In this document: positions 1 to 64,000 of the stretch, one piece after another
Position numbering within the stretch: position 1 is the first letter of the stretch
Layout: every line of letters starts with the position of its first letter
Source: Ascidiella aspersa
Lineage: Eukaryota
Assembly (NCBI GenBank): GCA_963924565.1
Contig: OZ004610.1
Coordinates: 31,062,001-31,126,000 of the forward strand
DNA: 64,000 bases
Reading direction: 5' to 3'
Notes under the pieces: model-generated
What the model was told of the DNA's origin: nothing
The model's database searches: none
What the model saw: the letters and a program-made list of their open reading frames with translations, nothing else
Translations under genes and position numbers: made by a program

Positions 1-27
1 CTACGATTACGGCTTCCGTATCAATAG

Positions 28-140
28 TACACCGAAAAGCCATCGCAGACTCGCCGAATCTGTCGATCTATGATGCAAGCAGAGCAAGCCAGAAAAACAA
101 CTGGCCTGCAGTGAGGTTCGAACTCACGACCGCCGGTCAA
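28..140 (-). mobile_element. tRNA-derived SINE fragment
   Basis: Minus strand gaccggcggtcgtgagttcgaacctcactgcaggcca (B-box/T-arm); second copy at about 21508-21625. Confidence 0.65.
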
Positions 141-18900: not shown

Positions 18901-21900
18901 ACTTAGCATCTCCGATCAGGTGATATCGGACATCACTATAGGTCGTAATATTTCGGACGTATCGGTAGAAAATAAGGCGGCGAAAGGGGTACGACGTATT
19001 CGTGAAAATAGTCAAAGGAACCATTCAGCAGTAAGGTTAACGATCCGATTAGACAACTTCTTACTGATATTGGTGCAAGTGCTGTTCAACAGTTCGTAAC
19101 CACTGTTGCAGGAGCAGTTAAAACCGCCGGCAAAGTTGCTACATCTTGCGTTGGCCGAACAAGTGTCCGTAGAAGTGCATTCGTCAATGTCATCGCACGT
19201 CTGTAAATTCAAGGACCAATTGTTGTTTTTTGTCTTTTAAAGATTCGGATTTCTTGAGATACAAATACATCACAAACAACGATTCTGTACCTAATAAATA
19301 TAATACAAATACTTGACAATTAAAGGCTATACTTATAGTGTTGTTGCTCGCGTTTGTTCTTGCATTTTATTTTTAGTGTTTTTCTATATATTGTACTACA
19401 TCGTTCGGTGTAATTCTCCTTGACAAGGCGATTTGAACAGGTTGCCGAAACGTTGGTTAGAATTACAATTACCAGTGGAGCCGTCTTTGATTCTACCACT
19501 ATTTTAGAATCTATTTTAGAATCTTCAAAAGACACTTTAGAAGAATAGTAGCTATACAAACAATGGTTATTATTTGCTACGCGATTTTTCCGACGAAAAA
19601 TCCAACTGCACTGAGTCATTGAGACGTGTGTAATGCAATAGTCCATAGTTTGTCCAAACGTTTAAAAGCAAAGAAATACTATTGGGTACCCTATGTACAG
19701 ATCTGTAATGTAGCTTGCTAGTGAATTGCAAAGCCAAACTGATCGAGTAGATCGATGGTCCACAATTGCGTTCCACCTTACAGTACATAAGTGATGCTTT
19801 GTTTTACCTCTCAGTCACATTAACTTAAGATAAGCTTGCATAGAAACGTCTTAATCAAGAAGATGTCCATTTACTCGACCTTTTTGGCTTTGTGATTCGT
19901 TATTAAGAAACACCCTTTATTCAACAAAACGATAATTGCAATCTCACACGTTTGATCGCTTAAACTTACGTTTCCATCCCCGGTATATCCAGCCTTACAC
20001 TCGCACGTGAAGGAGCCTTGGTTGTCGAAGCACTGACTGCCGGTAGCTGTGCAAGCGCTGCTGTTGGCGCACTCGTCTATGTTCGTGCAAGTCGAGTTGA
20101 CCAGTTGGTAGCCGGTGCTAAAAAAACATATAGTTTGGAAAGCGTTATACCCTGCCAAGACGTTTTCTGATGGACACTTTGAGGACTAGAAGTAGACAAC
20201 TAGATAATTCTAGCTCTCTAATTCAATGAATTAGAGCGAAATGCGACTAATTGTAATTTTAATTTGTAAATAAGTTTTAGTGTCTTAGTCGAAACAAATA
20301 ATTTGTTTAAATACCCTTTGATCGGAACGACGTGTTAGTAGTTTTTCCAGACTTGCTTCTTTAAAATTTGTTTATACTTGAGATTTTTTGGACAATGCAC
20401 CCTTTAACTATTTTGAAGATATCTGATTTTTATAAGTTCTAAGAATAAGGATATTTCTTTTTATTGCTTAACTGGAAAGTAGCAAAAGTAAAAAAATAAA
20501 GTTTTAATAAGATTTTATTGAATAACAGCCTTCAGCACTTCATTACACCTATATAATGCTAAAAAATGTCCCTTTCAATGTGATTGACTAAAGGTCTCTG
20601 TACATCCACTCACCGACACGCGCAGCTAAATGAACCGTTGTTGTTGACGCAAGTTTCTGTGGCATTGATACACCGTTGAACTCCGTCGATACATTCGTTC
20701 ACATCTTGACACGTAAAAAGATCCGATCCGCTGTAAAAGGTAATTTACACTTTTGTGAATCTACTTAAATGGCGAAAGAGTTTTAAGCATTTTACTCCAT
20801 TCGAAATAAATTCAATGTTACAATATGTCGCACCCGTAATTGTTGGATTGACCGTAATGCACAGTACAGTACAGCCTGGGAAAAATACTTTGTCTAAAAT
20901 TAAAAAAAAAACGTTAACAATTATATAGTTTGATCAAGTCCGTTATTTTGCACCGAACGTTATGTTTCAAACAAACAGTTAAGGAAAAAGTTACAATAAA
21001 AAGTAATTTCCTTGTATAAGCAGTATAGTTGTCATCCCATTTCGGGAGACAACAACGCGTAAAAAGCGAGAGGTGTTAAAATTCACCTCGTGTATCCCGG
21101 ACGGCAACTGCACTGGTAAGAACCGTCTGTGTTGGTGCAGTTGGAGTTGGTTGAAGAACAGTTGTGTGCTACAGGTGAGGTTGAACACTCGTTTATGTCC
21201 ACACAAATTGAACCATTCTTCACGTAGCCGGCGTTGCACTCGCAACTGTAGAAAAACCGAACAAGCGATTAAAAACATTTAATAAAAGGATGTATTTTTA
21301 TGGCATTCAAAACAATTGGCAGCAGGTTTTTTAAATTACTGTTCCGCTGACTGGTATATTAACAGTAAAACTCCCGAGTAAAACCGGTTTTTAAAGGAAT
21401 AAACATTTCGCCTATGCTGGCATTTTACCTTACATATACCGGAGTAAAACGGCGGTTGAAAACATTAAACACACAGGTAAACAGAAAATAAATCATTCCT
21501 TGGAAGAGTACACCGAAAGCCATCACAGGCATCAAATCTGTTGATCAATGAAGCAAGCAAGGCAGGTTAGAAAAAGAATCATAGTCCGAAGTGAGGTTCG
21601 AACATACATACGACCTCCGGTCATACTGCTCAGAGGGTGGCGAGCCCAACAACAACCACAGTATCATTGTCTACTGCATACTATTCATTAAATAACAAGA
21701 ACAGACAGCAACGGACTAATATGCAGACGTTCAACAAATAGCTATAGGATGCTAGATATACAGGATAGGTCTAGAACTTCATTTCGTTGTAATAAAATAG
21801 CAGAAAAAATTTTATTTGGTTATTCGGACCAAAACCCACCATTAAACCTTGCCCGACGCTGATCTTAAATACAGTGCACGCATCGCCAAATCGCAAAACG

Positions 21901-24900
21901 TGGCTTTCACGCTACATTAATAAACCTATTTGGAATCGACCAATCGAGACCACCCTTTTCTTTGCGCTTCTCCAACTTTTGAAAGTCGGCAAAATAATCG
22001 GCATCTAACCTGAAGTTGCCAACCGTGTTGTTGCAGAATGAGTTGGCGACAGTTGAGCAGGGAGTACCGGCGGTACACTCGTTGATATCCTCACACGCAG
22101 TGTTGTTACCGCTGACCAGTTGGTAGCCGGCGAAGCAGGAGCAGTTGAAGCTGTTGAAGAGTGGTGTGCAGACCTGGCTGCATGGACTGGTGGTCTCGCA
22201 CAGGTCGATCGTGGTGCAGTTGCGGCCGTCGCCTGAAATGATATTTCGGTTGGTGTTGTGTGTTTTTATTCAATTTATGTTGCACTGAATACGTGGTAAT
22301 GGAAATCACCTTGACCCTTTCAAAATAAATGTCGACCTCAATTTCTGACCAGTAATAGCAGAATACTCAGTAATAGCAGAATTGGTATATTAGCAATGTC
22401 AGCCAATATCATCTGAAACAACAGCAGAATGCTCTAGCAAAGCTAGGAATTCAGGTCAGACACTATTAAAATATATAATTATATTTCAATGAAGGTTGCA
22501 GTCAAATTATATACTGGTGATGCCTGGATTCATTCGAACGATATACTGACTATGCCTTTGCTGGCGAAATATATATACCTTATTAAGATCTTTTAATAGC
22601 GTCTGACCTGAAATGTTAGCTTTGCTAGAGCATTCTGCTGTTGTTTCAGTTGATATTGGCTGACATTGCTAATATACCAAAAGTATATCGAGTCCGTTCT
22701 CCTTTTGCTGTATTTGTTTGTCGTTTTAAATCTGAATTTAAATCTGAATTTTTTTTAATACGGTGACGATTTAAAGGCATTGACGAAAAGCTGTGCGTAA
22801 CCTGTCAATTATTTTCGGTAGTTTCGCTCAAAAATTGGGTTTGGGTGATTGATAAAAAGACAACACATAACGTTTCCATTTTATTCTTTAATTGCTATCA
22901 TGTATTTAGTGCAAACAATTGCAAAGCCAAAAGGTCGAGTGGATGGACATCATCTTGATTAAGACGTTTCAACACCAACTTCTACCATCTGAAGTTAATG
23001 TGGCTGAGAATTAAATCCAAGCAAGTACTACGATCCATATTTTATAAATGATGGTTTGATTTACTTTACAGTCACTGAAGATAATACAAGTGCGAATTGA
23101 AACGTCGTAATGAAGGTAATGTCGATCTACTCGACCTTTTTGGCATTTTGGAAATTCTATATCAAGCTTTTCGGAATTTATTATTATCAAACTCCGTATT
23201 TAGGGTTTAATAAATTGCCAGTCAAAAAATAAAGTTGGTTACCTGTCGTTCCCGCCGGGCAGTCGCTGCAGTTTTGTCCCACGTTGGGCGCGATCGCATC
23301 AGTACAATTGACGCCGGTGTAGCAAGCAGAAAGGGCACAACCGTCTCTGTCGTTTGAACAGTCCACTCCATCGTAAGCCTCGGTACAGTTACAACCGACG
23401 ATCTGAAAAACGGAAACTGAGTTGTCAAGCGGTTCGCCGCCAAAAATACCTTAAAAGTATAATGAAACCCTATTTAAATTTTAATTAGCGTAAATCGCAA
23501 ATCAATTGTTTTTCAAAGAAACAAGATTGGCATAAAATTTTAAACAACATGAATTTTGGGACATCCTATTCCATGTATCTTTTTATAGGTAAAGAGGTAA
23601 ACTATGGATCGGCTGAAGTTGATCATTTTTACCTTTTTGGTTATGGTGTTAGTGTAAATGCAATACAAATATAAGGGAAATTTTAGTATTTACCACCCCC
23701 TCCCCCTATAAAAAAACTAGAAAAACAGTTTTTCCTTGAAGGGAAAATGACAAGATACGACCCGCATTGATCAGTGAATACCCCGTCAGTTCACGTATAT
23801 TTTTATAGGTAAAGAGGTAAACTGTGAATCGTCTGAAGTTGAACATTTTTACCTTTTTGGTTATGGTGTTAGTGTAAGTATAAGGGAAAATTATTATTTA
23901 ATACCCTCCCCCCCCCCCCCAAAAAAAAAAACGACTAAAAAAGAACAAAACACACTGTTTTGTTTCCTGAAGGGGAAAATGGCAGGATACGACCCGCATT
24001 GATCAGTAAAGACCCCGTCATTTGACGTACCTGGTATGTATCGGTTCCCGACACTAGGTCGCTGTAGAGGCAAACCCCGGAATTGTTGCACACGCAAAGC
24101 TTGATATTGATCGTCAACGAGGACTCGCCGTTCGCAGAGTCGGTAGCCTGAATCAGCAGTGACGTCATGTTGTCGAACATCCTGTTGTTGGCGTTGGGCG
24201 TCCAGCTAACGACCCCGGTGTCTGTAAAGTAAGATGTTTTGGGTGCTTGAGAGATGCTAAGTTATATTATGTTGATCTTATTATAACGATACTATTCCAA
24301 AGTTGTTAATGAGATCTAGGGCATTTTTAAAAGCGACTTTGTTTTCATGCCACGGACGTTTCTTATATTAACATGCTCATCATGAGAAAACATACGATGA
24401 AAACATAAGACGTGGAATATTTTAAGTTTAATTCTAGGAAAAACCGTCAATTTACATAGAATGGAAGACGAATATGGCCCGATTAAATGCCGTAAAAACT
24501 AATTTTTAAAACAGTATTAAAATTTTGTTACTAAACGGACTGAAAATATTGAAAGTTGCACGAAATCATAGTTTTTGCCAAGGTTTCAACTCTTGAAGTA
24601 TAGCAAAAGATAAATAGGTACAGTTAAAATATAAAACCGGGCGATGTTTACGGAGGACCGAATAGGTTGGAAATTGCGCGAAAACATAGTTCAAAAAAGC
24701 GAAAGTAAGCTAACCGTTTAGGTAGAAAAACGTAAATATGTATAGCTAAAATATAAAACCGGGCGGTGTTTACATGACGGCAATTCAATCGGACCAAGCC
24801 ACTTACTCGCATCGATGGCGATCCCAGGTACTGTGTTGGTGGTGCCAATCGAGAAGGTGATGGTTTGATTCTCGGCATCGGTAGCTGTCACGTTGAAGGT

Positions 24901-36900: not shown

Positions 36901-39900
36901 TTTTTCTACATAAAATAGTGAAGTTCCGTGGCTCTGTCGAGATATTAAATCTCCAATATCGAACGCGCCCTCGAGCACACCTCAAAAATTAAGCTTTACG
37001 GATTAAAAAAGGCGCCAAACTGGATTAAAACAAACCACGGGGGGCTCAAATGATACCTGGTAGTAGACTCGTCCATTGTTGTTCGAGTTAGGATGGAAAT
37101 CGTCCCAAAACGGAGCCAGCAATGCGAGGTTTCGGTCGGAGAATCCATCGCTGAATGGCCGGTACAAGTATTGCACGTAGTAAAACGAGCTACCCAAGTA
37201 GATAAGGCCGTTTGAGATGACGCGAATGTAAAAGAATGACTCCTGGCCGAAGTTGATTCCATATTCGAGCCTGGGAAATCGAAAACAGTCGTATAGCTAC
37301 GCAATTCAGCTAGGAAATTGTAAAATTTCTGCCAGCAACGCTGTTATGTTTACTGCCTTCCTTATTGGTAACATTAAAAATCGGAGTCATCGTATCTAGG
37401 TTTTTTTAAATTTTTCTGTAATATATCAGTTTCGTGATTTACGACGAAAAATGAGTTTAGCTGGGAAAAAATATTTTAGTAACACTTGTTGGCAAACTTG
37501 CCGTGATCAAATTTCAATTTGAACACACATGTTGTGTAATATTCTACTGAAAAAAGACCACCAAATACCTAAAATTGATTTAAAACATATCTTGGTGGCG
37601 AACCGGTTTGAAACACTATACACTTCGATAAGAGAAAAAAAATTGTGTATAAAGCGGCAGAGCAAAATTTATTGCAGAATCACGGTGCTTTAACTAACAC
37701 TCTAATTACAAGCAGAATTCGCCTACCATCTCATCCAAAAAGCTTTGATAAAAATATATACATAGAAAAAAAAAATAGAAAACTTACGCGTAAGGTTCTG
37801 ATGCTACGTCATCGCCAATTGGCAGCAAGGTGTCGCCCTCGGACACTCCGTAAGGCAGGAGAACAATCTCATAGCATTTCAGGCCGTTACCCCTTAATAT
37901 TAACAACAGTGCATTATAATTTGTGTAAACAGTCTGTTTCCTCATGTTTTTGTCCCATGACCTAAGGTTTATAATCGTATGACTCGGCCTTTAATCAAAA
38001 TAGCAGTTTAGATTACGTAACATGTGATATACACGGTGTGCTGTAAATGTCGTGAACTGTAAAATTCGGCGAAAAAAAGTGCAGTCATGAAAGCTCTACG
38101 TAAATCTCTAATTACTATAAGTGTTAAGTGGAGGTCAGTTGTAAGTATATCTGCAAATAGCAGAACTATTTTAGCATGTAACACGAATAAGACCAAAATG
38201 AATCACGCAACACGGATTTTTACCTAAACCGTTGCACATAAATTCAAGGTAGATATCACTTGTTTCTCTTTGGTCATGGTGATTGACCACAAATGCGATC
38301 GTGTCGTCCGGCCATCAAATTAAAAAATGATCAACTAGCGTTACAATAACACCTTTTGTAATGTCACTGACATTCCAAAAATATCTCCAAATAAAACAAA
38401 GTTTTAGTTAACTTTGGCGATGTCGCGCTCGTCTTTAAACCACATAAAGAACTACTTGATTACAATTTACTATTGTCGTACAGATTCGTAAAACATAGTG
38501 TTTTATAAGGGTTAAACTATTTCTTTAGATATTGTTGTATGTTAAAACATGAGTTTTTTTTAACGAAAACTCATTAAACTTTTAAACTGGCGAAACAAGT
38601 TGTTTTTAAATGACCTAAAGCTGTTGCATGAAATTTTCTGTTTACCGCGCTTATTTCAGGCGCAAATGCCACTTTCAAATCATGATATAAAACAACATAT
38701 TATTACACTGTTCAAAACACATATACCAAATGTATATGATTGTGTTATTACTTTGGGCCGTAAAATAATTAGCAACCCTGCAATAACATATAATATAAAC
38801 AATAATATATTAACAAAGGCTACTAATTCGTCAAGGCAGCAGAATCGAGCAATTATAGCCGTAAAAATGCAGATTGGCAATTCACGGAAATGTTACGCCA
38901 AGTAAAACGTTTTATAAGTATTCTAGAGGGCACCTGTATCCGGAGTTGCAGGCGCAAGTAAATGATCCGACTGTGTTGGTGCAGTTAGCATTGGTATCGC
39001 AAGGACTGCTTGTGCACTCATTGGTGTCAGTACTACAATCATTGCCTGAAAATAAACGCTTGCACGTTTTAGGTTAACGTAAACACCTTGAAGCTAAATG
39101 TAAGAAACACATTTCGGTGAACAAGATGGTTACCAGAGCGGTGTTTACGTGGTGTGCCACTTAGACAAAGTTTTTTAGTTAAGCCGCCCCAAACCTTACT
39201 TCACAGTCCATTAAACACCGTCAGCCCCCTAAAATATGTCACCGCAAACCCAAGTAAGCCTATACAGGGGCATTACAAGAAACGACGTTTGGTAGAGGAC
39301 TCCTAACAGCAAATATTAAGGTCGCTACACTCTTATATTCCAAGGCGATTCGTCATATAGGTTTTTCTGATGACACAAAAGTAATTATTTGTCAAAAAAT
39401 GCATAAAAGTGTACTTCTCAAACTGTTATCATGTTTAGTTAATGACTGAAAAAGACGATGTCGATCTACTCGACCTTTTTGGCTTTACAATTCATTATCA
39501 AGCTACATTACAGATTGGTGCATAGTGTACCAATTTATATTACGAACTTACATTTTTTCCAGAATACGTATCAAAACGTCTTAATCAAGACGATGTCGAT
39601 CTACTCGACCTTTTCGGTTTTACACTTCATTATTCAGCTACATTACAAATCTGACTATAGTGTACCCAAGTGTACTTTTCATTTCATAGCTCGAAAGCGA
39701 TGGCGAAACTAAAAATCTAACCCTAAGAGAAACGACAACTTACCTTCCCATCCGGCTGGACAGGTGCAACGGAAGCTGGGAAGATTGCCGGAGCACTGTC
39801 CCTGGTTCTGGCACGGATCGGGCGAGCAGGGACTAAAAACTTCGCAATTTGTGCCGTAGAAGTACTGGTTGCACGTGCAGCTGAAGCCCTGGAACTGTGG

Positions 39901-42900: not shown

Positions 42901-45900
42901 CCGTCAGTTATGACGAAGGCAATCAAACGTAAGTTGATGTTGCAAAAACAAATAGTTATTCGAGTACAACAAAATGATAGCTACATCTGTATTATAAATG
43001 CGCTAAACACCTCGTGCCCGCAAGCTTATTTTACCTACCACTTAAACGGCAATATAAAAAGCACGAGCGGCTAATGATGGTAACGCGACAATTCAATTCC
43101 ACGGATAAACACTCGTCACCAACTACAGATAGGCTAGTTACTTGCAAAACAAGGTGGAACTTTACGGAACACCAAAAGTTGCGATGGCCTTCTTACGCTT
43201 TGCGAGTCTTTTTGTTAAATGGTCGCATGTTTTTGGAACATTTTGAAGCATAACGGTGGGAGGTTGTAGTAGGACGTAGTAAGAATATCAAAGCCCATAC
43301 AAAAGTAGGTATCATTTCGAACGTTTCGAAAAACTATTTATTCATTTAAAGAGTATAAAGAGGTATTCGAAACGTTCAAAATATCGAATATTTGTCCCAA
43401 ACTTGGCGGTTTATATTTCCAAAACCATAAGTTCACCTAAGTAACATTTTTGTGTAGAAAGCAAAACATTAATTGAGAAAATCGAACACTTTATTGAACA
43501 TAGTTTTTTTTTATGTTCATCAATTTATATTTATAATATAAAACAATGCTTTATTTACTGCTTTGTATTGTTCAATACAAACCTATAATTGGGTTATTTA
43601 TATTAAAAAAGCGTTTATTTGATAGTGTTATGTCAACCAACAGCAATGCCTTAAATCTAGCTAGCAAATCAAAACCGAACTGGATATAAATTCTATTCAA
43701 ACAAGATTACTGCGTGTTCGATGCAAATTGAATTAAACAAGAAAACAACAAACCGCTTTAAATAACCATATTGCTGTTTATGATTTTTAAAATCTACAGT
43801 ATGGATAAAGCAATAAAATAATAGCAACCAAAGCATTATCAAACACAATCTTCACAACAATAAAAAACGGGGTGTCTATTTTCGGGCAAGATAGCGTGAT
43901 GTATGACGATACAAGAGCTCAGTAAGGGACGATGTCTCGACCTGAACCCTTCCTTCGGTATTTTCGGAAGTCAGGAGCCGGTCATTTGACGTGTTGCGTC
44001 ACGCCGAAGTTCGATGCGCATGGGCTGCATTGCGTGTAGCGTAAAGCGCTGGTCGCATTACAGAAGTCCTTATTCTAAAGTTTAGCGGGCTAGCTATTTA
44101 TTCCCCGCTACGGTGTGGTCACTGACGTCAATTTGAGTGACCTGGCATTTACTAAACGTGCCTCGGCGTCTTACCCAGTGCCGGATTAACAATAAGGCTA
44201 CGAAGGCCTTAGGCCCTGGAAAAATTCAGCCCTCAATTTTTTTGAGGTTACATTTTTGTAGAGCTCATAGGCGTGATATTGATACATGCAGTACCGATAC
44301 ATTTTTTTTTCTAAAACACGAATGACTGAGTCGAGGCAATATGTGCCTTCTGTGGAAGTAAATAAATCGTTTCATTTATGCATCTATGTATTTTTATAGC
44401 TTAGTTTGCCAAAACTAGGCCCTTCTTTAGTAAACAGCCTACAGTTGCCTGAATCCGGCGCTGGTATTACCTGTACATGTGCTGCCGTTGCCAGAATAGC
44501 CTGACTTGCATGTGCACGAGAAAGATCCGGGGTGGTTTGTGCAGTTTGCGTTCGTGTCACAGTTGTCCGAACCGTTCGCGCATTCGTCGACATCTTGGAA
44601 AACACGCCAAAAAGGAAATCAATAAAATCTCGAAATTCGTGAGTTCAAAGCGACGGTCTGTCCGAAGTGGCGCTTTCAGGTGTTTTAAAATTGGACGATT
44701 TCGTTCGAAACACGCGATTATTTGACTGCCGTCGTTTGTAAACCGTCTGTTGTCCAGGAAATGCGGTTCCACATTTTCAAAAGTGGCTTATACAACCGAA
44801 AAGCAAAACGTATCAAATCTAATGCAACACACAGCAACACTACGTGGTGATCTATAAAGGAGATTAATTAAGAATATCAAAGGCAAATAGGTCAAGTGAA
44901 TTGACACCATCTTGATAAAGACGTTTCGATAGGCACTTGCACGATTAACTAATGATCAAGATGATCTCATTTACTTGACCTTTTAAGCTGCACTTATAAT
45001 AACTAATGTAATGCAGTTTTATACACAATAAATATCACGAGCTGATTGCCATTAGTACTTGACCCTTTTTTGCTCTCACAGAGTCGAATGTGTAATCTGT
45101 ATACCCCGAGAAGGTAACACCAACAACTAAGTTGGAGTAGATAGCTGTAAAGAACTTAAACGACTACGTCACACTTTTGTTTTTGTCCCCCGATTAGAGG
45201 CGCCTAAGGGTGCGGAATCCTAAACCTTAAATACGCACCTACATACTACGCGATGTCTGTAAATTACGGCGTCGTATGTGTAATCTGTAAACCCCGAAAA
45301 TGTAACAACAACAACAACAAAGTAAATTACCTGCGCACGATCTCCCGTCACCCGAATAGCCTGTCCTGCATCGGCAAATGAACGAACCAGGGGTGTTTGT
45401 ACAACCAGCGTTGGTGTCGCAGTTGTTGCTACCGTCGGTGCACTCGTCTATGTCTAAAATGATACAATTTTCGATCGGTTAAACAAAATATGAGAGAGAA
45501 GAAGCTTAATTGTTTGGTTAGGGAACCAAATAGGCGAAATTAACGCCCCTAAAAATTAGACCAAAAATATTTATTGCAACAGTACTATACAATTTCGCGT
45601 ACATCACAAAAAACGCCAATCATAGGTTTTTTGGGTGCCACATTTTACTACGGTAACGATTTACAACAGGCCTTACCTGAACAAGTGACCCCACTTCCAG
45701 TGAATCCGGTGTTGCAATTGCACGCATAGCTGGATCCTGTTGTTGTACAAGTGGCGTTGGGGCTACAAGGGTTGGTCGAACACGGATTGACAGCTAAATA
45801 AAAAAAAATAAAAAATATATACTGATGACGTCGATTTAACCACGGATGCAACCCAAAGAATCGCACTTCATTCTAAGTTTTCAACCACCCAAGCTTGGTG

Positions 45901-49274: not shown

Positions 49275-50225
49275 CTGCAAATAAGCTAAGCGCATAATAT
49301 GAATTACAAATTACCTTTGAATTGCGGGACTTCTTGTATCGCTCTTTCAGCAAGCAAGCGTTGAAAAACGTAAAAAAACATGTAACAGCGATAATAGCGT
49401 CACGTATGCGTTTAATAGCTTTTTTCCCTTAGCTGCTTAAACATAAATAGCTATACAAACAAGCGAAGCAACGTTGCAGACTCTTCTCAAATTAGTGCGT
49501 GACTGCTACCTCCAAAATTTGATGACTATCAACATTATTTTTTGTAATTCCACAAGCAGAAATTTCAGGCCATTATTGCAGAAATTTTTGTGGATAAATA
49601 TAGATTATAACGCAATTTAGTTCACGATTTTGACGCTCGAAAATCGCGTTGTATCCCTCTAAACCAGTGTTCCCAAGCTTTTTTTATTTCGTGGCCTAAT
49701 TTTTTTTGGTAAAACAGTTTGTTGCCCACCATGTGTCGTAATCTTTTTTGTATACCCTTTAGTCCATCATCCAAATAAGATGTATCAACCGATATATCTT
49801 ACTTGATATACATAAAGCAAAATTGTCTGTCTGCAATTTACGCCTATATTTTCGGACAATTCCTTATTAAAATACATTGATTCTAACGACATCCAAATGA
49901 TGCTGTTTACTTTCAGTTTATTTTTAGATTGGAAATAAATATCTCTATGACAACAAACTGAATTTAAGGTGAACTGCCGTGCTAATTGTGTAGCGAATAA
50001 AAAACACAGGTCGTTATATTTTGCCTTTACGTATATAGTTCTCAACTAGTCAATAATATGGAAATGGCCTCATTCCTATATGGTTTTTGAAATGCTAACA
50101 ATTATTTTAAAAAAAACATATTCAGTTGCAATATTTTTAAATAGCTCCATGCTCCCACGAAAAAATGGCTCCCTTTTGTTGGATTGTCATAGTTTTGATG
50201 TAATTATTTTAATAAAAAAACAAAC

Positions 50226-51737
50226 CTGTTGTTGATGTTGTAAAAGTTCCGGTGGTCGCGGTATTCGCCGTTGTACCGATAGTTATGGTTGTCCCAGTAA
50301 TTGCCGTTGTCGCCGTAATTGCTGTTGTCGCCGTAATAGCTGTTGTAGCGGTATCTGCTGTTGTTGCGGTACCTGCTGTTGTTGCGGTACCTGCTGTTGT
50401 TGCGGTACCTGCTGTTGTTGCGGTACCTGCTGTTGTAGCGGTACCTGCTGTTGTAGCGGTATCTGCTGTTGTAGCGGTAACTGCTGTTGTTGCAGTACTT
50501 GCTGTTGTTACGGTACCTGCTGTTGTTGCGGTACCTGCTGTTGTTGCGGTACCTGCTGTTGTTGCGGTATCTGCTGTTGTTGCGGTACCTGCTGTTGTAG
50601 CCGTAACTGCAGTTGTTGCGGTACTTGCTGTTGTTGCGGTACCTGCTGTTGTTGCGGTACCTGCTGTTGTTGCGGTACCTGCTGTTGTTGCGGTACCTGC
50701 TGTTGTAGCGGTACCTGCTGTTGTAGCGGTACCTGCTGTTGTAGCGGTACCTGCTGTTGTAGCGGTACCTGCTGTTGTAGCGGTACCTGCTGTTGTAGCG
50801 GTATCTGCTGTTGTTGCGATACCTGCTGTTGTTGCGGTAATCGCTGTTGTTGCGGTATCTGATGTTGTTGCGGTACCTGCTGTTGTTGCGGTAACTGCTG
50901 TTGTTGCGGTATCTGCTGTTGTTGCGGTACCTGCTGTTGTAGCCGTAACTGCAGTTGTTGCGGTACTTGCTGTTGTAGCCGTAACTGCAGTTGTTGCGGT
51001 AATTGCTGTTGTTGCGGTATCTGATGTTGTTGCGGTACCTGCTGTTGTTGCGGTAACTGCTGTTGTTGCGGTATCTGCTGTTGTTGCGGTACCTGCTGTT
51101 GTAGCCGTAACTGCAGTTGTTGCGGTACTTGCTGTTGTAGCGGTACCTGCTGTTGTTGCGGTAACTGCTGTTGTTGCGGTATCTGCTGTTGTTGCGGTAC
51201 CTGCTGTTGTAGCCGTAACTGCAGTTGTTGCGGTACTTGCTGTTGTAGCCGTAACTGCAGTTGTTGCGGTAATTGCTGTTGTTGCGGTATCTGATGTTGT
51301 TGCGGTACCTGCTGTTGTTGCGGTAACTGCTGTTGTTGCGGTATCTGCTGTTGTTGCGGTACCTGCTGTTGTAGCCGTAACTGCAGTTGTTGCGGTACTT
51401 GCTGTTGTAGCGGTACCTGCTGTTGTTGCGGTAACTGCTGTTGTTGCGGTATCTGCTGTTGTTGCGGTACTTGCTGTTGTAGCCGTAACTGCTGTTGTTG
51501 CGGTACCAGCCGTTGTTGCGGTATCTGCTGTTGTTGCGGTACTTGCTGTAGTTGCAACCAATGCTGAAGTGGTGAAAAATTTATTGTCCGAGTACGGAGA
51601 ATAACCAAGAGCAGTGGCGGATACTTGAACAAGACTTCTAACGCGGGCAGAACACAGCGTGTTGGATGGAAGACCAGTCGCTGTATAATTGGTGCTTGTT
51701 GTGTTGTAGGTAAACTTCAAGTTGCCACTGCAATACA
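50226..51737 (-). CDS. A exon: FN3 C-half + (TATTAX)n Thr/Ala repeat
   Basis: [14 protein letters not shown] then 18-bp repeats; possible phase-1 donor at 50225, or read-through to TAA at 50209. Confidence 0.88.
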
Positions 51738-54700: not shown

Positions 54701-57700
54701 ACCGTTGCCAGTGGAGTTGTGGTATTTTCAGCTGCAGTTACGTTGGGTGCAGAAGTGGTGGTATTCAGCACTGTTGGAGTGGTAACTGTTGCCAGTGGAG
54801 TTGTGGTATTTTCAGCCGCAGTTGCATTGGATACAAAAGCGGTCGTATTAACCACCGTTGGCGCGCTTGTTGAAGTTACCGCTATTGAAGATGTGGTAGT
54901 GAAAACTTTGTAATCGGAATACGGTGAATATCCTGCAGCAGTCGCAGACACGTTAACGAGTGCTCTCAAGCGAACAGAACAAAGCGTGTTGGAGGGCAGA
55001 GCTGTAGCCGTAGAATTGGTGGTTGAAGCTGTGAAGGTGAATTCTTGACTGTTGTTACAGGACACTGCATAAATTAAGTTTGTGTTAAATTCGATGGATA
55101 CGTGGATTCCTATAAGAGTGGTTCCGGCCTACCTTTGATTTCAAAAGAAATCGCTTCGACGGTTGTAGCATATGTGAACGTTGCACTGCTCGATGCCACT
55201 TGACCGATTGTAATGTTTTGTGGTGCGGTTAAGTTTGCAACTAAGCAACAAAAAAAGTGATTAGATAAATGCGACAAAGCTTATCCATAAATGTAAAATC
55301 ACAGCGCGACAAAGCTTATCCATAACTGTAAAATCACAATGCGACAAAGCTTATCCATAAATGTAAAATCACAGCGCGACAAAGCTTATCCGTAAATGTA
55401 AAATTACAACGTACGTGTCGTAACTGGGCCAAGGGCGGTTGTGTTCAAAGAGGTTGTGTTGAGAGTGGAGGTCGCGTCGGTCGCATCAGTGCTGTTGGTG
55501 GTAGCCTCAGCGCTCATAAATACGCTTCCGTTCCTGCAACGAAAGCCAGAAAACAGGTTTCTAAACTTATATCTACCAATTGCCCGAACAAACTGAAAAT
55601 CAAAGCCCATACAAAAGTAGGTATCTTTTTGAACGTTTCCAAAAACTTTTTATTCATTTTCAGATGTTGAAAATTAATAAAGAGTTATTCGTTATTCGAA
55701 ACGTTCAAAGTGATGATGATACATCCTTCTGTATGGGATTTAACGTTCTTATTACGTCTTACTACAACCTCTAACCATTATGCTTCAAACTGAAAATAAT
55801 TACCTCAGGTAAATGAGCGTAATGCCCTGCAAGTTGGCACCACTTCCTGTTTTCACACCGTTTGTGATTTGGCCGCGGTACTTGTTAAGCAGGGCAATTG
55901 ACTGGTTCGACAAACTGTCGCTGTATTCATTCAAGTACACCTCAAGCTTGAGTTGAGTCGAGAACTGCACCGTGAGTAGGCCTGGAACAAAAGCATCACA
56001 TTTCACAATAATTATAAATGTTTGGGGTTCAGTGTAACTCAATACAAGCATAGATATTTGGGAATCAGTTTAACTTATTACAAGCATAGATGTTTGGGCT
56101 CAGGCTAAACTCATTATAAGCATAGATCTTTGGGACTTAGGATTAAACTTAAAAAGCAAAAGCAACTATGGTGTCGGATATACACGCGATTAGATTGATA
56201 TTCATCGGACGATAAATCAAGAATAATGGATTCAAAACAATGTATCCTGACTATGATCTAGAAGCGTAAGTCGATTTCGAATCCTGATTCCGACTCGGGG
56301 CCATTACGTGGGTGAAAAAGTCAATATTCCAGACTACGCTTTTCTACGATTTAAAGGTAAAACTTTGTCGGTTACGAAATTGTTACTGTGCATGTCGGAC
56401 TTTTAGGCCTCATATTGGACTTCAGTCGAATAAACCGACTCCGTCGAGTCCCGAGTGCTGCTGCGACTTCTCAGCCTTGTTTTAAAGTAGCACAATGCAA
56501 CAGACCTGTCTTTGCTTGCGTCGGAGTGCTGAACGCTGAGTCGACAGCCGACCCATTTAATTCTGTCAATGGACGTGAACTGATGTTGTAGTCCGTGTTG
56601 GGACTAAGGTTGCAAATCGCGACAGACGCAGTTGCTGTGTTCGACAAGTTAGCCACAATCGTCGGTCTGTTCTTTGTTTCCACTTTGTACTGAAATAAAG
56701 TGATATAAACGTTTTTAGATTTTTGACTTTTTTCGAGATTTTTTTGACAACCAGTGGTGCAAAATGTACCAAGTTCTTACTCCCCTGCCCATAGCTTTTA
56801 CTAAAGAGTGTAAAAGATAAGTTCGTATCGAAAAAATGTGTTATTTATGTAACTTCTTAGGAGTACTCCTAGTACGCAACTTGACATATCAGCAATTATG
56901 AACTGTTCAAAAAGTGATCCGCATTTCGGAACGGATCGAATGAGGATATAACACACTGAAAAAGTACGCACCTGATAAATCCCGTAGGCTTTGCTCGGAT
57001 CCAAAATAACAACAATGCACTTTGCGTCTGTGGCGAGTATCGAAGGGGCGGATTGCTGTACCGGCGTTGTTATGATAAGTTCTGAAAGCAATAGACAGCG
57101 TTATTTAGCTATCTTTATGTATCTCGGCAAATTGCCGTATTTGTCTAATTCTGAATATAGGGTAATCAAGGGGCACTAAAAAAAAGGTGGAAATTACCTG
57201 ATGCACAGTTGTGCGAAAGATTATCAAGAATCAATACAATTTGTCTTTATATGGTACCACCTGTTTACCCTATTTTTATATATTTTTGTAAGTGGTCGTA
57301 CTTGTCTAGTTCTAAACAGGTTAATCCGGTGACATTGTATAAAAACAAATTGCATTGAATTTCCGACAAGCCTTTGCACAACCGTGCTTCATCAGGTCAA
57401 AGTAGAAAACCTGTTTAATCTGATGAAGCACGGTTGTGCGAAAACTTGTCTATAATCAATACAAAGCAAACAAAAAAGTTTGAAATTTATTTGCAGTGGA
57501 AACTAAAAGTTTTTTCTGTATATGTGGAACTCAAAAAACTTTTTCTAACATTTGAAGATATTTTTTGGGAAGGTGCAGGGGCCACCTGATCGCCCTATCG
57601 TTAAAAAATAGTTCTACTGTAATCGATGACACAAGCAGTCACCTGAACAATTCCCCCCGTTGCAAAGTGGGTTCTTCGCTTTTTAGGTTTAAGTAAACAA

Positions 57701-60700
57701 CTTAAGATCTACAAGTCGAACCTACTTTTACAGGGCGGGAAATCATTCCGCTATCCTTATATAGATATACTGAAACACGAGCAGTTACCTGAACAATTCC
57801 CCCCATTGCCCGTGTACCCAGCGTTGCAAACGCATGAGAAACTGCCTGGTACGTTGGTGCAATTAGCGTTGGCATCGCACGGCGAGTTGTTGCACTCATT
57901 GATGTCAAAGCAGTTGGTGTAAGCATCACCAGTGTAACCAGCAATGCAATCGCAAGAGAAGCTGCCAATTGTATTTGAGCAAGTAGCATTACTGCCACAA
58001 GAGGGACTGGAGCATTCATTGATATCGCCGCATGTAAAGCCATCTCCGGTGTAGCCTTGTGCACAGACGCATGTGTAGCTGCCGATGGTGTCTGTGCAGT
58101 TTGACGTGCCGTTTGGCGAGCAGTTGTTCAGGCTGGAGTTACTGCATTCGTCTAAAAAACACCAATAAACAGAATAAGGTCGAACTCCCAATAAATAAGA
58201 CTGTTAAAAAGGAAGTGGTTTACGGCAATCTGTCTTACGGAGGCAACATATTATTCTTGTTGTTGAGTTGTATGTAATGGACATGGAATATTTAGCACTT
58301 AATTACGAAAAATTATGAATAGGTTGCAAAATTTAATGCTTCACAGTTGTTCTAAATTGTTTAAAGCCGGTCTTTAAAGGTATTTTTGTGTTATTTTAGT
58401 GCGTTTAACTTACCTTCATGTGGCGTCCATAAAACGATTTAAATCTGGCGTCTCAAAATCCCTGTTTTGTCGTTTCAAGCCATTCTTATCGTGTTTTTGT
58501 TCATTAAAATCACAAATCATGGATCTTAACTTACTCCTAACATAATCAGACACAAAATACGTCGTTAACGATACATATTTTTCATCAACTAGCCGACGGT
58601 CCGACTGATTGCATAAAACACATAGGTGTGCGTACTATAGAGACAAAGCAACGTCACTTAAACCAAGCACTCACCGACATTAAGGCATGTGCCGTTCGTC
58701 TCTGCATAGCCCGGGTCGCAATTGCATAAGTAGCCGCCAAACGTGTTGTTGCAGGTGCCGTTGCTTCCACACGGGTCAACTCCGGCCGTGCACTCGTCGA
58801 TATCAGCGCAGACCAGACCGTCGCCCGAAAATCCGGCCAGACACGAGCAGTTGAAGTTGCCAGGGGTGTCGGTGCAGTTCGATGTGCCGTTACCGGCGCA
58901 GTTGTTCAGCGTATTGTTCTTGCACTCGTCTGAATGAATGTGCATGTTAAATCGTGGCCATTTTTGTTACTGTGGCCGCCAAAAAGCGGCAATGACTTTG
59001 GTTTGGGACAGAGATCACCCTGCGTTTGGTCAGCAAATTACTTGATTGGAGTTAAGTCTTTTGGACTAATGAGTTAACTTGATTTAGGTCTTTCGAATAA
59101 ATGACTTGATTTGACTTAAGTCTTTCGAACAAATGACTTAACTTCATTTAAGTTTTTGGACATTTTTAAAAATAAAATTAGGGTATTTATCTTAAATTTT
59201 GCAAATAATACAATATGCGTTCTATATTATGGGATTTGTTATTTTTTAGTTAAGTATTGCTCATAATCGGACTAATGGGCCATTTTGTTAGTGTGGCCGC
59301 CAACAAAGGGTTAATGACTTGAGACAAAGATTATCCCGCGTTTGGTCAGCAATACATTATTAATACACTTTCATTATTTGTATGGGCTATAGGCAACGCC
59401 TTTGTGGCTCAGTGAACGACAGAACCGGTATAGCCGGGTCAGTCTGGCAGTTTTTCTAGTCCGATCAAACTAACTGATTTCGATAACAGCCTTTTCGAAG
59501 GTTAATCTACAGTTTTGGCAATTTGAAAGACAAAACACACATCGTACCAAAACATTGTAAAACTCATTTTTACGTCGAAATTCCCTGGAGACACAGCACC
59601 GTATCATTAAACGAAAGACACACACATATATGTGTTTAATAACAACTGGGTCTAGCCCGTCAGAGCTGCTTTTTGACCTATAAAGAAAGCCTTCGTATAC
59701 GAAAGCCGTAATCGTTGGTCGAAAAGCAGCTTCCGAGGGGCTAGCTAGATCATAGTTGTTACTAAACACATATGTGTGTGTGTGTGTGTTTTATTAAAAA
59801 CCAGGTTGTCGCATAATTGTTTCACCAATATTCATGCAGGTTCCGTTGAGCTGCTCGTAGCCAGCCATGCAGACGCACTTGAAGCCTCCGATCGAATTCT
59901 CGCACATGGCTGCCGCTGCGCACTCAACCGTGGCGTTGCCAGTGGCGTCGCACTCATCTACGTCATTGCAAACCTGCCGCGAGCGAAACACGATAGTTAC
60001 GAAAAGCCGCGCGCGAAAGGTTAAGAATTTCGGACGAATTTAGATTGAGTGCTATGGGCGATTGCAATTGCGAAACACAACACCTGAGAACGTCTGTAGA
60101 AGTTGCACGCGAAAAGGGCACCGTTTTACAGAAATAGATCAAAACCGTACCACTTAGGGTATACTTACTTAGGGTAAACTTAGGGTATATAAAAAAGATC
60201 TAAAATAACTTCAAAAAGTGCACAATACCTTAGTGGAAATAGTATTTGTATACATTCAGGCGATTTGGTCTAAAGTTGTATTAAAAACATACCCCGAGGG
60301 TTTACTAAATTTATTTTTTAGGGGCACTGCTTGTTAAATTAAAAAAACAAGTGGAAAGCTTTAGTTTTATTTAAACCAATTTGTACTATGAAATAGACGT
60401 AATTTAGTTAAATCTTTGAAAACCTTTTAAAAACAGTTTAGCATTAAAACCTCAAAGCGTGGAAATTAATATTTTTTAATCATTTTATGGCAATAAAGTC
60501 ATGTTGCCGTATACTGCCGTCCATTGCCAGTGTAGTCGCAATTACACCCATTTTGAAAAGTAGACTTAATTTACTTAAATTCGGAAAACCTTGTGTTTTT
60601 CTAACAGTTAAGACTTTTAAAGCGTGAAAAAAGTTGTTTTCCCGGTTCGACCATATACTATATTAAGAAGACTAATCTCATCAGAATAAAATCATATTGC

Positions 60701-63700
60701 TTTATACTGACCGGTGTAGCCGCAACTAAACCAATTTGTACGGTTAAACAAGGCGTGATTTACTTAAATCTGAAAGAAAGGCCCTTAAAATACAATTTAG
60801 CATTAAAAAACTGAAAGCGTGAAAAAGTTTTATGAAATATATATATGATTTAATCATATTGCCGTCTACTGACTGTTCCGTCGCCGGTGTAACCGGCCAG
60901 GCAGATGCACGAGAATGATCCCTGTGTGTTAAGGCAGGTGCTACGGTTGGTCGAGCTGTCGCAGTTGTTCAACGTCGAGTTTGCACATTCGTTCACGTCC
61001 ACGCAGTTGCTGCCAGACGTCGTGTACCCCGGCCTGTCAAAATTGCGAGAAATTAGAGTTTTCTTTTTTTTCTTTGGACGACGCATGGAATGATAATAGC
61101 ACTCCTGAAGTCTTTATTTTTCTGGTGTTTAATTTCGTGAAAACTAGCTGTTCGCTAAAAAAAATTACGAATCTCAATTTTCAAATTGCTTTATTGGTAT
61201 TTTTTTAATTGGCCAGAAATATTGCGTCCCTTTGTGTTATCTACATTTAACATTTGTGTGGATTTTTCAGAGATAACCGATTTTTTTTAAAGGGATAAAA
61301 GTACAAGGGTATTTTTCTTTTTTTTATCATTCTAGCCTCGGCGCCATGGAAAATCAAATGAAACGTTAACTAATCAAAGTATTTTTACCAGTACAAAACA
61401 GGTTTTAAAATTCCCTCACAAAACGGATACCTGCAGTTGCAGTTAAACGATCCGATTGTATTGGCGCACACTTGAGTCTGATTGATGCAAGTGTGTGTTC
61501 CGTTCGTACACTCGTCGAAATCGGAGCAGATCAGTTGATTAGAACCTTGCCTGAAGTGAGACACAAATAGTTTGTTGAGTTGCTGCAAATACCATTTAAT
61601 ACGGACATACAGTAATGATTAGTGAACTCTCTTATACCTTTATTTTCTTCCGTCCCATTTCCAAATCTACTAAGTAATGCACAGTTGAATAACAATAATC
61701 ACTTGGTTTCATAGGTAGAACGTTAGTTTAAAATGGTTTACAGCCAAGGAAAATGTTAAACCATTCAATGGTATATTCATTAAACTTTCCTATATCAACC
61801 AAAAGGTCGGTCATTTATAGATTCGGACATTTCGCTACGAAATAAGGCGTCATCACTCATCTGTCTCCCTCCAATGGATGGTTATGTGTACAGTGTTGTA
61901 AACAAGACTTTTTGTGAATTTTTTTGTGAAAACGTTAGTCCAAGTCAAGTCTTTTAAAAAATAGAAAGTCAATTCCCAGTCGAGTCATTAATACAGCGCA
62001 TCGTTTTCGAGTCCAACCAGTAATCTAATAATAAAACGATAAAGGACAAACCATTGAAATTGGAAAACTCGTTAATTGGTAATTAATTCAACTGAAATAT
62101 AATAAAAAAACAGCATGATTATGTAGAAAGCGTTTGACAAATAGCTCAGTTTTATAATAAAATATTAAGTGAAAAGATTTATTTCAACTAAGGTCATTCG
62201 ACTCAACGGCAAGTCATTTGACCCAATGAAGCCCAAGCAAAGTCATTTTGCCCAAACGACTTAAGTTAAGTCAGGGTATTTAAAAACAGTGACTTGAGTG
62301 CACTTTAGATCAAGTCATTGACTTAAGTTATTACGACTCTGATATTGTAGGTGAGTACAGAACACAACCCAACTTACCATTGGTATCCTGAGTTGCACTG
62401 ACACACGAAGGACCCGAGCGTGTTCTCGCAGGTCGAAGTGGCGTTACTGCAGTTGTGGCTTCCCGCCGTACATTCGTCGACGTCTTTGCAGAAGCTGCCG
62501 TTCTTCGCGTATCCGGACACGCAATCGCAACTGTGCGGAACACAAAACGTTTATAAATAGCGCCACGGCGTTGCTCGTTTTTGGAACGCTGGGGCATTGG
62601 TGGCGAAATTTCCAGTCACCTTATTTTACATTGTGATTTTTTCCGCCTTTTACGATTTGGCAAGGATTAGATTTACTTTCTACATATAAGTTACAGCATT
62701 TATATAGGCTATGCAGTATGCACGGATCTGTAGCTTAAAGTATCTTAATAATGAATTGCAAAAAGATCGAGTTGATCGACATTATCTTGGTTAAAACGTT
62801 TCGATACGAACTTGTATCATGTAACTGAAGATGATACAAGCTCGTATCGAAACGTCAAGATGAACTTTTTGGTTTTGTAATTCATTATCAAGCTACATTA
62901 CAAATCCGTGCATAGTACATACAAGTATATGCTAGAATTGTTAAAAATTATTGTCAGCTGCCATTAGTGACGGAAACAGAGACAACCGATTTCGTAAAAA
63001 GCATTGTTGTATTTTTTGTGAAATCAACATTCAATATAACAGCCGTGTGGTAGATTATTTGTTTATTAAAATTACAAACTGGCAATGTTCAACACTCGGA
63101 ACTTAAAGCTTGGTCCAATACCCTGTCCAAACGCAAAAAGAACCAAAATGTAAAACTGGTTTAGTTTTAACTAAAATGTTCCATAATTTGGCTGCAAATT
63201 CCCGTCGTCTATAGTGTTAGTTAATACCGCACGTTTAAAAATCACACAAAGATTAATCTTCACATCAAAACCAAAATTTGGTTAATCAAGAAATAGAAAA
63301 ACCCTAGCATATTTGAAGTTTCGTTTGGCGAAACTATGTTGTGGTGTGAGATCACCAGATATAGTATTTTTAAATGACTAAAATTTATAACTTAGTGTTC
63401 AGTGTTCAATTCGATAATTGTAGTTCACATAAACTTAGCATATCAGCGACCCATGTGGTGACCTGTAGTTGCAGATTTCATTTCAATAAATATTGCTTCG
63501 GTGAAAACAAGGTTGGAGACCACTGGTGTAGTGCAAGTCAATACTGTACACCTATTAATCACACACAAGCCAATCCTTATATTAAAAAAATAAAACGCCG
63601 AGGAACATGGGACATCCGGATATAGTATTTTTATTATAATTTAGTGTTCAGTGTTCATTCTGATAATTGAAGTTTACATAGAACCTAAAATATCTGCGTG

Positions 63701-64000
63701 CCATATGGTTACCTGTAGTTGTTTCCCTTGGTGAAACTGTGTTGTTGTATGAGATCACCAGATATATTATTTTTATTATAATTCAGTGTTCATTCCAATA
63801 ATTCTAGTTTACATAAATTTAAAATATCAGCGACCCATATGGTTACCTGTAGTTGCCAACAGAGTTGACGCAAACAGAGTTGGTGATGTTTGCGCACGGC
63901 GAGGTTTCCACGCACTCGTTGACGTCATCACAGCGTGTGTCGTTGGTGGTGTTGGAGCGGTAGCCGGCATTACAGGTGCAGTTGTAGCCGTTGAAGACCG
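50226..64000 (-). CDS. Block A: 3' part of a paralogous mucin-like glycoprotein (EGF array-[FN3-SEA-FN3-Thr-rich repeat]x2), 18 exons, start beyond right edge
   Basis: Phase-consistent exon chain, largely collinear with block B exons 25-39. The 3' end is ambiguous: stop at 50209, exon 49231-49274, or splicing into block B. Confidence 0.85.
50260..51550. repeat. Coding 18-bp minisatellite (about 70 units)
   Basis: (gcggtacctgctgttgtt) variants in tandem. Confidence 0.95.
51822..51929 (-). CDS. A exon: FN3 N-half
   Basis: [23 protein letters not shown]; 108 nt. Confidence 0.85.
52006..52124 (-). CDS. A exon: SEA domain 2, C-part
   Basis: R|[12 protein letters not shown]; 119 nt like 55415-55533. 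Confidence 0.87.
52488..52665 (-). CDS. A exon: SEA domain 2, N-part
   Basis: [21 protein letters not shown]...LTSLR; same 178-nt length as 55804-55981. Confidence 0.87.
53170..53338 (-). CDS. A exon: FN3-like C-half
   Basis: [16 protein letters not shown]; follows a 62-nt intron. Confidence 0.88.
53401..55064 (-). CDS. A exon: FN3 C-half + 28-aa mucin tandem repeat + FN3-like N-half
   Basis: 1664-nt open exon; ([28 protein letters not shown])n; phase 1-0. Confidence 0.9.
53521..54822. repeat. Coding 84-bp minisatellite (about 15.5 units)
   Basis: gctgcagttacg recurs every 84 bp. Confidence 0.95.
55133..55240 (-). CDS. A exon: FN3 N-half
   Basis: [23 protein letters not shown]; phase 1-1. 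Confidence 0.85.
55415..55533 (-). CDS. A exon: SEA domain 1, C-part
   Basis: R|[12 protein letters not shown]; phase 2-1. Confidence 0.85.
55804..55981 (-). CDS. A exon: SEA domain 1, N-part
   Basis: [21 protein letters not shown]...ITLIYLR; phase 1-2. Confidence 0.85.
56506..56689 (-). CDS. A exon: FN3-like C-half
   Basis: [16 protein letters not shown]; phase 0-1. Confidence 0.88.
56972..57081 (-). CDS. A exon: FN3-like N-half
   Basis: [37 protein letters not shown]; phase 1-0. Confidence 0.85.
57420..57450 (+). ncRNA. Minimal hammerhead motif (family 2), inverted partner at 57362-57400
   Basis: CTGATGA-A-GCAC/ggtt/GTGC-GAAA(A/G)CTT-gtc. Confidence 0.65.
57789..58151 (-). CDS. A exon: 3 EGF-Ca
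   Basis: [11 protein letters not shown]...DINEC...DINEC; phase 1-1. Confidence 0.92.
58675..58929 (-). CDS. A exon: 2 EGF-Ca
   Basis: [11 protein letters not shown]...[12 protein letters not shown]; phase 1-1. Confidence 0.92.
59826..59973 (-). CDS. A exon: EGF-Ca
   Basis: [18 protein letters not shown]...; phase 0-1. Confidence 0.9.
60874..61033 (-). CDS. A exon: EGF-Ca
   Basis: [24 protein letters not shown]...GDGT; phase 2-0. Confidence 0.9.
61431..61550 (-). CDS. A exon: EGF-Ca
   Basis: [21 protein letters not shown]...; phase 2-2. Confidence 0.9.
62378..62530 (-). CDS. A exon: EGF-Ca
   Basis: [27 protein letters not shown]...; phase 2-2. Confidence 0.9.
62825..62856 (+). ncRNA. Minimal type-I hammerhead ribozyme motif (family 1)
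   Basis: CTGAAGA-T-GATAC/aagctc/GTATC-GAAAC-GTC; other family copies show an ATTAA/TTAAT stem I. Confidence 0.7.
63847..64000 (-). CDS. A exon (partial): EGF-Ca
   Basis: [13 protein letters not shown]...[27 protein letters not shown]; donor gtaacc. Confidence 0.9.

Follow-up and report, generated by a model that had tools for sequence, protein, structure and literature searches.

Introduction

Insertions of Penelope-like elements that encode an endonuclease (EN+ PLEs) have been described with inverted, 5'-truncated copies and with tails (PMC8557442; PMC3846280), and how PLEs make their tandem and inverted ends has been called still undefined (PMC8557442). In Adineta Pen2 and Pen2a, the pseudo-LTR contains TATA and Inr motifs, and antisense self-priming has been proposed for these elements (PMC3846280). 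For D. virilis Penelope, a TATA-less internal promoter with a start upstream of an intron has been reported (PMC2377424).

PLEs also carry minimal hammerhead ribozymes, which are described as inactive as monomers (PMC4209133) or without protein (PMC11167929). Dual minimal hammerheads on opposite strands, 100-700 bp apart, are already known, and ribozyme-cleaved circles have been proposed for PLEs (PMC4209133). The non-LTR retrozymes are reported to avoid introns, with their orientation unmentioned in the accessible part of the preprint that describes them (bioRxiv 10.64898/2026.07.22.740005). Working with Poseidon of Anolis (PAc) in vitro, Frangieh et al. found that the PLE protein cuts and extends both target strands, and that reverse transcription starts at two internal sites bounding the tail, on an uncleaved RNA template (PMC11167929). 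Inverted insertions, duplications, 5' ends and caps are not treated in the accessible main text of that paper. In L1 and SVA, an untemplated G marks capped, full-length insertions (PMC4859970).

Here we analyse a fold-back in the genome of Ascidiella aspersa, together with the repeat family (family 1) to which its arms belong. What appears to be new is the statistics of a start-site pattern; the inverted, 5'-truncated PLE layout and the tails were already known. Our literature search, a weak one with subscription papers largely uncovered, found no start-site pile-up, cap G or double-priming model for PLE insertions.

A decayed fold-back in a host intron

The window, by which we mean the whole stretch of 64,000 nucleotides analysed (G000:C4:31062001-31126000), lies within a large minus-strand gene with EGF, VWD and NIDO exons. 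The fold-back is intronic; a calcium-binding EGF exon of this host gene follows about 180 nt downstream. Positions within the repeat are numbered from r0, the C of CUGANGA, and cleavage falls after r31. The features of the locus are as follows.

62380..62530, minus strand: host calcium-binding EGF exon (EGF_CA E 1.3e-12); the acceptor AG ends at 62531
62681..62691, plus strand: candidate left target-site duplication, doubtful; 10/11 identical to 62916-62926 and 17-18 nt off the left arm
62709..62820, minus strand: left arm, a pseudo-LTR end spanning r+6 to roughly r113, in the sense orientation of the host gene
62821..62821, plus strand: junction base, a single G untemplated by the family's upstream sequence
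62822..62916, plus strand: right arm, r-3 to r112 and perhaps as far as about 62929; antisense to the host gene
62825..62856, plus strand: minimal type I hammerhead core, with CUGAAGA, stem II, GAAA, palindromic helix III and GUC
62916..62926, plus strand: candidate right target-site duplication, doubtful; overlaps sequence resembling the element's own continuation

A preliminary description of this locus had presented the two arms as reverse complements meeting at a hammerhead. The inverted repeat is real: positions 62710-62921 align with 67% identity over 232 columns (E 5e-17), and the central arms (62796-62820/62831-62855) are 96% identical across 25 nt. The arms are not exact reverse complements, however, with deletions of 6 nt and 15 nt in the right one. 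The junction (62820/62822) does lie at the hammerhead, the left arm beginning at r+6 and the right arm at r-3/-2. Folding gave z-scores of -12.9 on the minus strand and -11.4 on the plus strand, with none of 200 shuffles equally stable, and a hairpin of -90.8 kcal/mol on the pre-mRNA strand. A contig from DNA run X1, which may be the source sample, crosses the centre of the fold-back (62376-62850) with zero differences, and a contig from DNA run X2 extends into the left arm. No empty site was seen at this locus in run X2. RNA run X3, of which about 6% was read, gave no depth on the host exons, and the base differences seen in it derive from other copies of the family.

We recognised the hammerhead by pattern and pairing; Rfam gave no hammerhead hit within the 64-kb window at E values up to 1. 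CUGANGA, stem II, GAAA and the UH core are all present on the plus strand (62825-62856). In common with the minimal hammerheads of metazoan PLEs, the motif has a type I core, a long stem II, a palindromic helix III and an unpaired base after A9; unlike them, it lacks helix I and faces a coreless arm (PMC4209133). Helix I cannot form, having 0 bp against 5 bp in an intact copy (L059). The ribozyme had been placed on the sense strand of the host gene, and this has to be withdrawn: the host exons are on the minus strand, where the fold-back, left arm included, has no CUGANGA. Judged from its sequence, no ribozyme can form in the host pre-mRNA at this locus, and the element is inert there. The locus is a dead, decayed double PLE end, ordinary mobile DNA of a known kind.

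In several respects, the focal copy is unusual. Both of its arms are tailed, so that the one-tail-only pattern fails here, and it is the sole two-tailed head-to-head pair in L001-L226. The left arm has a variant of the tail with a 7-nt duplication (13 exact genomic matches). The arms are about 10% diverged from the family copies, and they differ from each other at r16, at r85 and in the tail duplication. No clean duplication was found around the unit, the best repeat being 10/11 nt and offset from the left arm. The 17-mer at the junction occurs exactly twice in the genome, here and at L189 (G000:C4:9783823-9783970). L189 shares the junction and the rare tail variant, in unrelated flanks and with its own 12-nt duplication, and is a possible case of re-copying of a finished fold-back.

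Other repeats in the host gene

Four further family-1 loci lie in the window.

19685..19912, both strands: inverted pair; tailed minus arm (r47-117) and plus arm with a mutated core, from r-36 or further upstream to r93
22917..23168, both strands: inverted pair; minus (sense) arm r-28 to 78, core mutated; plus arm about r-45 to 90, core present, helix I 0 bp
39452..39666, plus strand: direct pair, both copies tailed, neither with CUGANGA
44861..45001, both strands: decayed inverted pair, r12-90 on the minus and r35-83 on the plus strand; coreless

These loci had been named as members of the same family, and they are; the pair at 39.5 kb is direct, as claimed. Their junctions, however, are mostly away from the motif. 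At 19.7 kb, r47 is joined with r-36 or further upstream, and at 23 kb r-28 is joined with about r-45; of the three other inverted pairs, only that at 44.9 kb (r12 with r35) joins at the motif. An intact sense motif was found in 0/5 family-1 loci in the host gene.

Non-LTR retrozymes resemble these sequences in being short, PLE-derived and associated with a type I hammerhead. We reject this class for the focal copy, which is head-to-head with no intact motif, where the described ones are head-to-tail with a motif in each unit (10.64898/2026.07.22.740005). We also reject it for the direct pair at 39.5 kb, both copies of which are coreless.

More intronic palindromes were seen at window positions 29666-29855, 57350-57464, 16081-16231, 16691-16997, 22382-22680, 59618-59783, 9941-10054 and 426-553. 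At least four of these contain CUGANGA-type motifs of other families, and fold-backs of several PLE families likely litter the host gene.

The host gene itself (minus strand, 2865-62530, and L062) is mucin-like and of giant size; its exons include FN3-like, EGF, NIDO, VWD and Thr-rich ones, the last at 50209-51792 and 53347-55128. Its VWD module and neighbouring exons are repeated just outside the window, as an internal repeat or a tandem paralog. At 63318-63856, a unit of 135-250 nt occurs as three diverged direct copies, each with a minus-strand splice-donor-like motif; these may be duplicated small exons. There is also a young tandem array at 34973-37015, consisting of 161-nt units and larger duplications that are 95-97% identical.

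Identity of family 1

A 32-letter core pattern of family 1 is matched exactly at 446 places, and a 28-letter tail pattern at 386. On sequence grounds it is the pseudo-LTR of an EN+ PLE; the preliminary description was right about the PLE identity and the inverted, 5'-truncated signature. In one copy (L047), an ORF with RT and GIY-YIG-like motifs is contiguous with the same repeat end. Pfam gave no hit on the broken pieces of L047; in its closest database homolog (P0001, 51% identical), both RVT_1 and GIY-YIG score above the cut-off. Among genomic relatives, L208 has RVT_1, and L209 has RVT_1 and GIY-YIG below the cut-off; intact relatives have frames of 843-880 aa and the same type of end. The 3' part of the repeat is a 26-aa frame with a weak match to the N-terminus of L208 (10/25 identical, pairwise E 0.003). 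The 17 long loci examined include no full-length family-1 element.

At the family level, we find the traits of EN+ PLEs: an RT followed by a C-terminal GIY-YIG in one ORF joined to the repeat, an adjacent inverted, 5'-truncated copy at the 5' end, and a tail of 30-40 bp on one end, the inverted arms mostly ending at r85-95 and the anchors at r117 or later. In described EN+ PLEs, the pseudo-LTR contains the first ORF codons and TATA/Inr-like motifs (PMC8557442; PMC3846280); that of family 1 has a TATA motif upstream of its core and, from the weak match to L208, may contain the first ORF codons.

Families B and C have the same two end classes as family 1. Family B (L207 and L208; G000:C7:11294800-11303500 and C3:20856800-20864500) has intact frames of 848-880 aa; its near-identical copies on several contigs point to likely recent activity. 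Family C (L209, at G000:C4:6268500-6275500, and L257-L326) has an intact 843-aa ORF and a U3-A8 variant hammerhead core, with 2747 exact matches of a 20-mer.

Anatomy of the insertions

We sampled family-1 loci by their tails, which is neutral to the position of the 5' end. The sample comprised 90 of the 386 tail matches (contigs C1 and C2) and all 11 matches to a one-letter variant, or 92 unique loci after removal of 9 duplicates from 101; it comes mostly from contigs C1 and C2 and is biased toward young copies. An adjacent inverted arm was found in 61/92 loci, a count that leaves out one spurious partner call (L172) and rises to 67 with short or long partners added by hand; these six additions enter some of the tests below.

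None of the 61 inverted partner arms is tailed, and 59/61 have their 3' end within r70-101. Duplications of 12-14 nt flank 30/62 units (L172 included), against 1/600 shuffled flank pairs. Within a unit, both arms carry the same variant at most subfamily sites (r16 in 20/20, r74 in 41/43, r-4 in 7/7 and r85 in 25/32) and are 92.7% identical, against 89.0% between units. One tailed and one tail-less arm, a duplication around the whole unit and variants common to both arms together mean a single integration event per fold-back, and this is normally how family-1 fold-backs arose. Of the 61 junctions, 16 have microhomology of 1-3 nt, 7 have longer microhomology, 8 are blunt and 30 contain filler. 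The 5' ends of the arms range from beyond r-1100, running into the RT/EN ORF, to r+90.

This layout, with a head-to-head end, a tail on one arm and a unit-wide duplication, is that of described EN+ PLEs (PMC8557442; PMC3846280). The insertions here differ in being mostly units of 150-300 nt without an ORF, and in having duplications of 12-14 nt, compared with 8-10 nt in those accounts. At L003:1440-1747 (G000:C3:7023357-7023664), a palindrome runs about 50 nt past the element into both flanks, which suggests a DNA-level inverted duplication or a longer variant.

Arm 5' ends, TATA motifs and an extra G

The 5' ends are concentrated just upstream of the hammerhead. In a set of 134 family-1 arms that extend to r60, the interval r-13..-1 holds 37 ends over 766 nt at risk and r-60..-14 holds 13 over 1446 nt; per base, ends are 5.4 times as frequent in the first interval (p 1.6e-8). 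Tailed and inverted arms show an equal rate, and 13/30 unpaired copies end at the same r-13..-1 spot; these 13 have no common upstream exon, leader or other sequence. We picked the windows after inspecting the data, and repeated the test in families B and C. In family C (70 loci, 76 arms), 33/39 arms that extend to r-1 stop in r-6..-1, including 15 at -3 and 6 at -5. In family B, 7/15 end in r-13..-1 (p 0.03; 30 loci from 221 matches). Breakpoints are thus non-random relative to the motif, random ones being what the preliminary description had set against its own claim. A peak of ends at the cleavage site is absent (p 0.15 in family 1 and 0.94 in family C), so the ends miss the place expected from a cleaved or circular template of the kind discussed for PLE hammerheads (PMC4209133).

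The usual spacing between a TATA box and the transcription start is about 30 nt, and in all three families the pile-up lies about 30 nt downstream of a TATA motif. The motif starts at -37/-38 in family 1, -42/-40 in family B and -35/-33 in family C, with modal ends at -7, at -12 and -7, and at -5/-3, respectively.

Many ends also carry an extra, untemplated G. In family C it precedes the end in 17/24 arms (4.6 expected, p 5e-8), counted over 31 arms with a scorable core less 7 ending outside the window; one or two of these Gs could derive from the partner arm. In family 1 the excess is modest, at 14/32 (7.7 expected, p 0.011; 70 arms, of which 36 end in the window, less 4 dropped because the template base is G), and in family B it is not significant (3/7, p 0.23). 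Three units (L263, L302 and L325) have the extra G on both arms. Compared with published EN+ PLEs, then, the insertions here stand out by 5' ends at TATA+30 with an extra G, and the focal copy by its two tails (PMC8557442; PMC3846280).

A second family-1 pile-up, at r-131..-150 in the last ORF codons, takes in 9/15 arms reaching there (L082, L087, L090, L104, L143, L154, L168 and L196). RNA run X3 gave 44 reads on intact family B, with 0 in the ORF, no start pile-up and no splice joint; this result weighs neither way.

A proposed double-priming model and its alternatives

The focal fold-back is, in our reading, a decayed head-to-head pair of pseudo-LTRs, and such pairs probably form by double-primed reverse transcription, with the two cDNAs joined where they stopped. 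The element would nick both target strands with a stagger of 12-14 nt, and both 3' ends of the staggered cut would prime reverse transcription on the element RNA. Priming would occur at two internal sites that bound the tail, within the first ORF codons and near the 5' end of the mRNA. If transcription starts at the top of helix I, many cDNAs would run off the capped 5' end of the RNA, copying the cap as G, before the two are end-joined with trimming, microhomology or filler. We infer the priming sites, start site, cap copying, run-off and end-joining from the anatomy and statistics, which are observed directly. On this model, the ribozyme would lie at the junction because the transcript begins with it, and not because of cutting or masking. 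We lean, if only somewhat, towards reading the thousands of short PLE fold-backs as strong-stop fossils of such double-primed cDNAs that ran off a capped start, with finished units occasionally re-copied.

Two known systems come close to this model. In PAc, as proposed here, the starts of reverse transcription bound the tail within the start of the ORF, both strands are cut and extended, and the RNA used is uncleaved (PMC11167929). L1 twin priming is the other system. There, the pieces brought together by an inversion come from separate, non-overlapping stretches of one RNA; here both arms copy one segment, which gives a palindrome. Our model shares with L1 the two target-primed cDNAs of each insertion. 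It also shares a cap copied as G (PMC4859970).

Several observations sit awkwardly with run-off from a capped start. The beginning of helix I coincides with the proposed start site in all three families, and in family 1 positions -10/-9 may be a 3' splice site, of the sort known at this place in D. virilis (PMC4209133). Run-off leaves the second pile-up at r-131..-150 without explanation, no full-length family-1 element was found, and the extra G is modest in family 1 and not significant in family B. The focal locus is itself atypical, with its two tails, a duplication that is not clean and arms that differ at r16 and r85.

These oddities bear on the alternative that survives best, which concerns the focal hairpin alone: rather than a fresh double-primed insertion, it could consist of two independent insertions, or be related to L189 as a re-copied fold-back or as a source. 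The two tails, the differences between the arms (r16, r85 and the tail duplication) and a junction 17-mer confined to this locus and L189, which has the rare tail variant too but unrelated flanks and its own 12-nt duplication, all speak for it. However, just two copies are involved, hot spots for junctions permit convergence, and with arms about 10% diverged, single differences may be later mutations. We consider this tentative reading unlikely, though less so than those below.

Double priming also has to be weighed against self-priming, in which one molecule snaps back, possibly on an antisense template as for the Adineta PLEs, and yields the inverted arm. Such a model has been published (PMC3846280), and it would account for subfamily variants common to both arms and for the microhomology at 23/61 junctions, some of it within the self-complementary stem II. 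Yet 38/61 junctions are blunt or contain filler, the inverted arm ends at a fixed 3' position of its own, beside the duplication, both types of arm stop at one upstream site at an equal rate, and the extra G on both arms of L263, L302 and L325 fits two run-offs from a capped sense RNA. We therefore think snap-back improbable.

Equally hard to credit is that the pile-up reflects, instead of a capped start, another feature at the top of helix I, either the edge of an RNA structure or a 3' splice site. Helix I does start at the pile-up in each of the three families, a pyrimidine tract and CAG lie at -12..-10 in family 1, and the intron of D. virilis ends at the 5' end of helix I (PMC4209133). The 13 unpaired copies without a common upstream exon argue the other way, as does family C, in which the nearest CAG (-18..-16) is at least 12 bases from the ends at -5/-3 and the ends match two TATA registers plus 30. 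Neither structure nor splicing accounts for the extra G.

The preliminary description had favoured masking: the antisense arm would be retained since it hides a sense ribozyme in the pre-mRNA, making intronic insertion tolerable. On the pre-mRNA strand the focal hairpin is indeed stable, junctions are concentrated at the motif (43/61 pairs have at least one end within r-13..36), and three sense CUGANGA motifs of other families in the host gene (29758, 57395 and 16151) sit inside fold-backs. At the focal locus, however, there is no sense ribozyme to mask, the sense strand being coreless and the only core antisense to the host gene, with 0 bp in helix I. Across the genome, a partner covers core-spanning arms less often than shorter ones, the opposite of what masking predicts. 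For tailed arms, the opposite arm covers the cleavage site in 15/39 of those that extend to r-5, against 37/52 of the shorter ones (OR 0.25, p 0.003; 91/92 loci, L174 dropped, six partners added by hand, introns and strands pooled), and for inverted arms the figures are 14/31 against 26/36 (OR 0.32, p 0.028; introns and strands again pooled). The end spot shared by unpaired copies (13/30) also means that the pile-up needs no partner, and about two thirds of insertions are fold-backs regardless. Masking thus appears very unlikely.

We give next to no credence to a DNA-transposon MITE or an assembly artefact: the palindromes are short and high-copy (2470 first-look candidates), but MITEs have fixed, symmetric termini and centres and no link to an RT ORF, whereas these have variable centres, asymmetric ends with 5' ends from beyond r-1100 to r+90, 12-14 nt duplications and long arms joined to an RT/GIY-YIG ORF, which refutes this reading, and contigs from X1 and X2 cross the centre and enter the left arm, respectively.

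Implications

The start-site model need not be universal among PLEs, D. virilis Penelope being TATA-less. If double priming with run-off from a capped start is correct, genome sequence alone would map PLE start sites to the base, and for these insertions a linear, capped, uncleaved sense template would be favoured over antisense self-priming or ribozyme-made circles. The model also gives an account of abundant, dispersed minimal hammerheads that needs no selection on the ribozyme. As the pattern recurs in independent families, it leads to a single model, one that would be directly testable in the existing in vitro PLE system.
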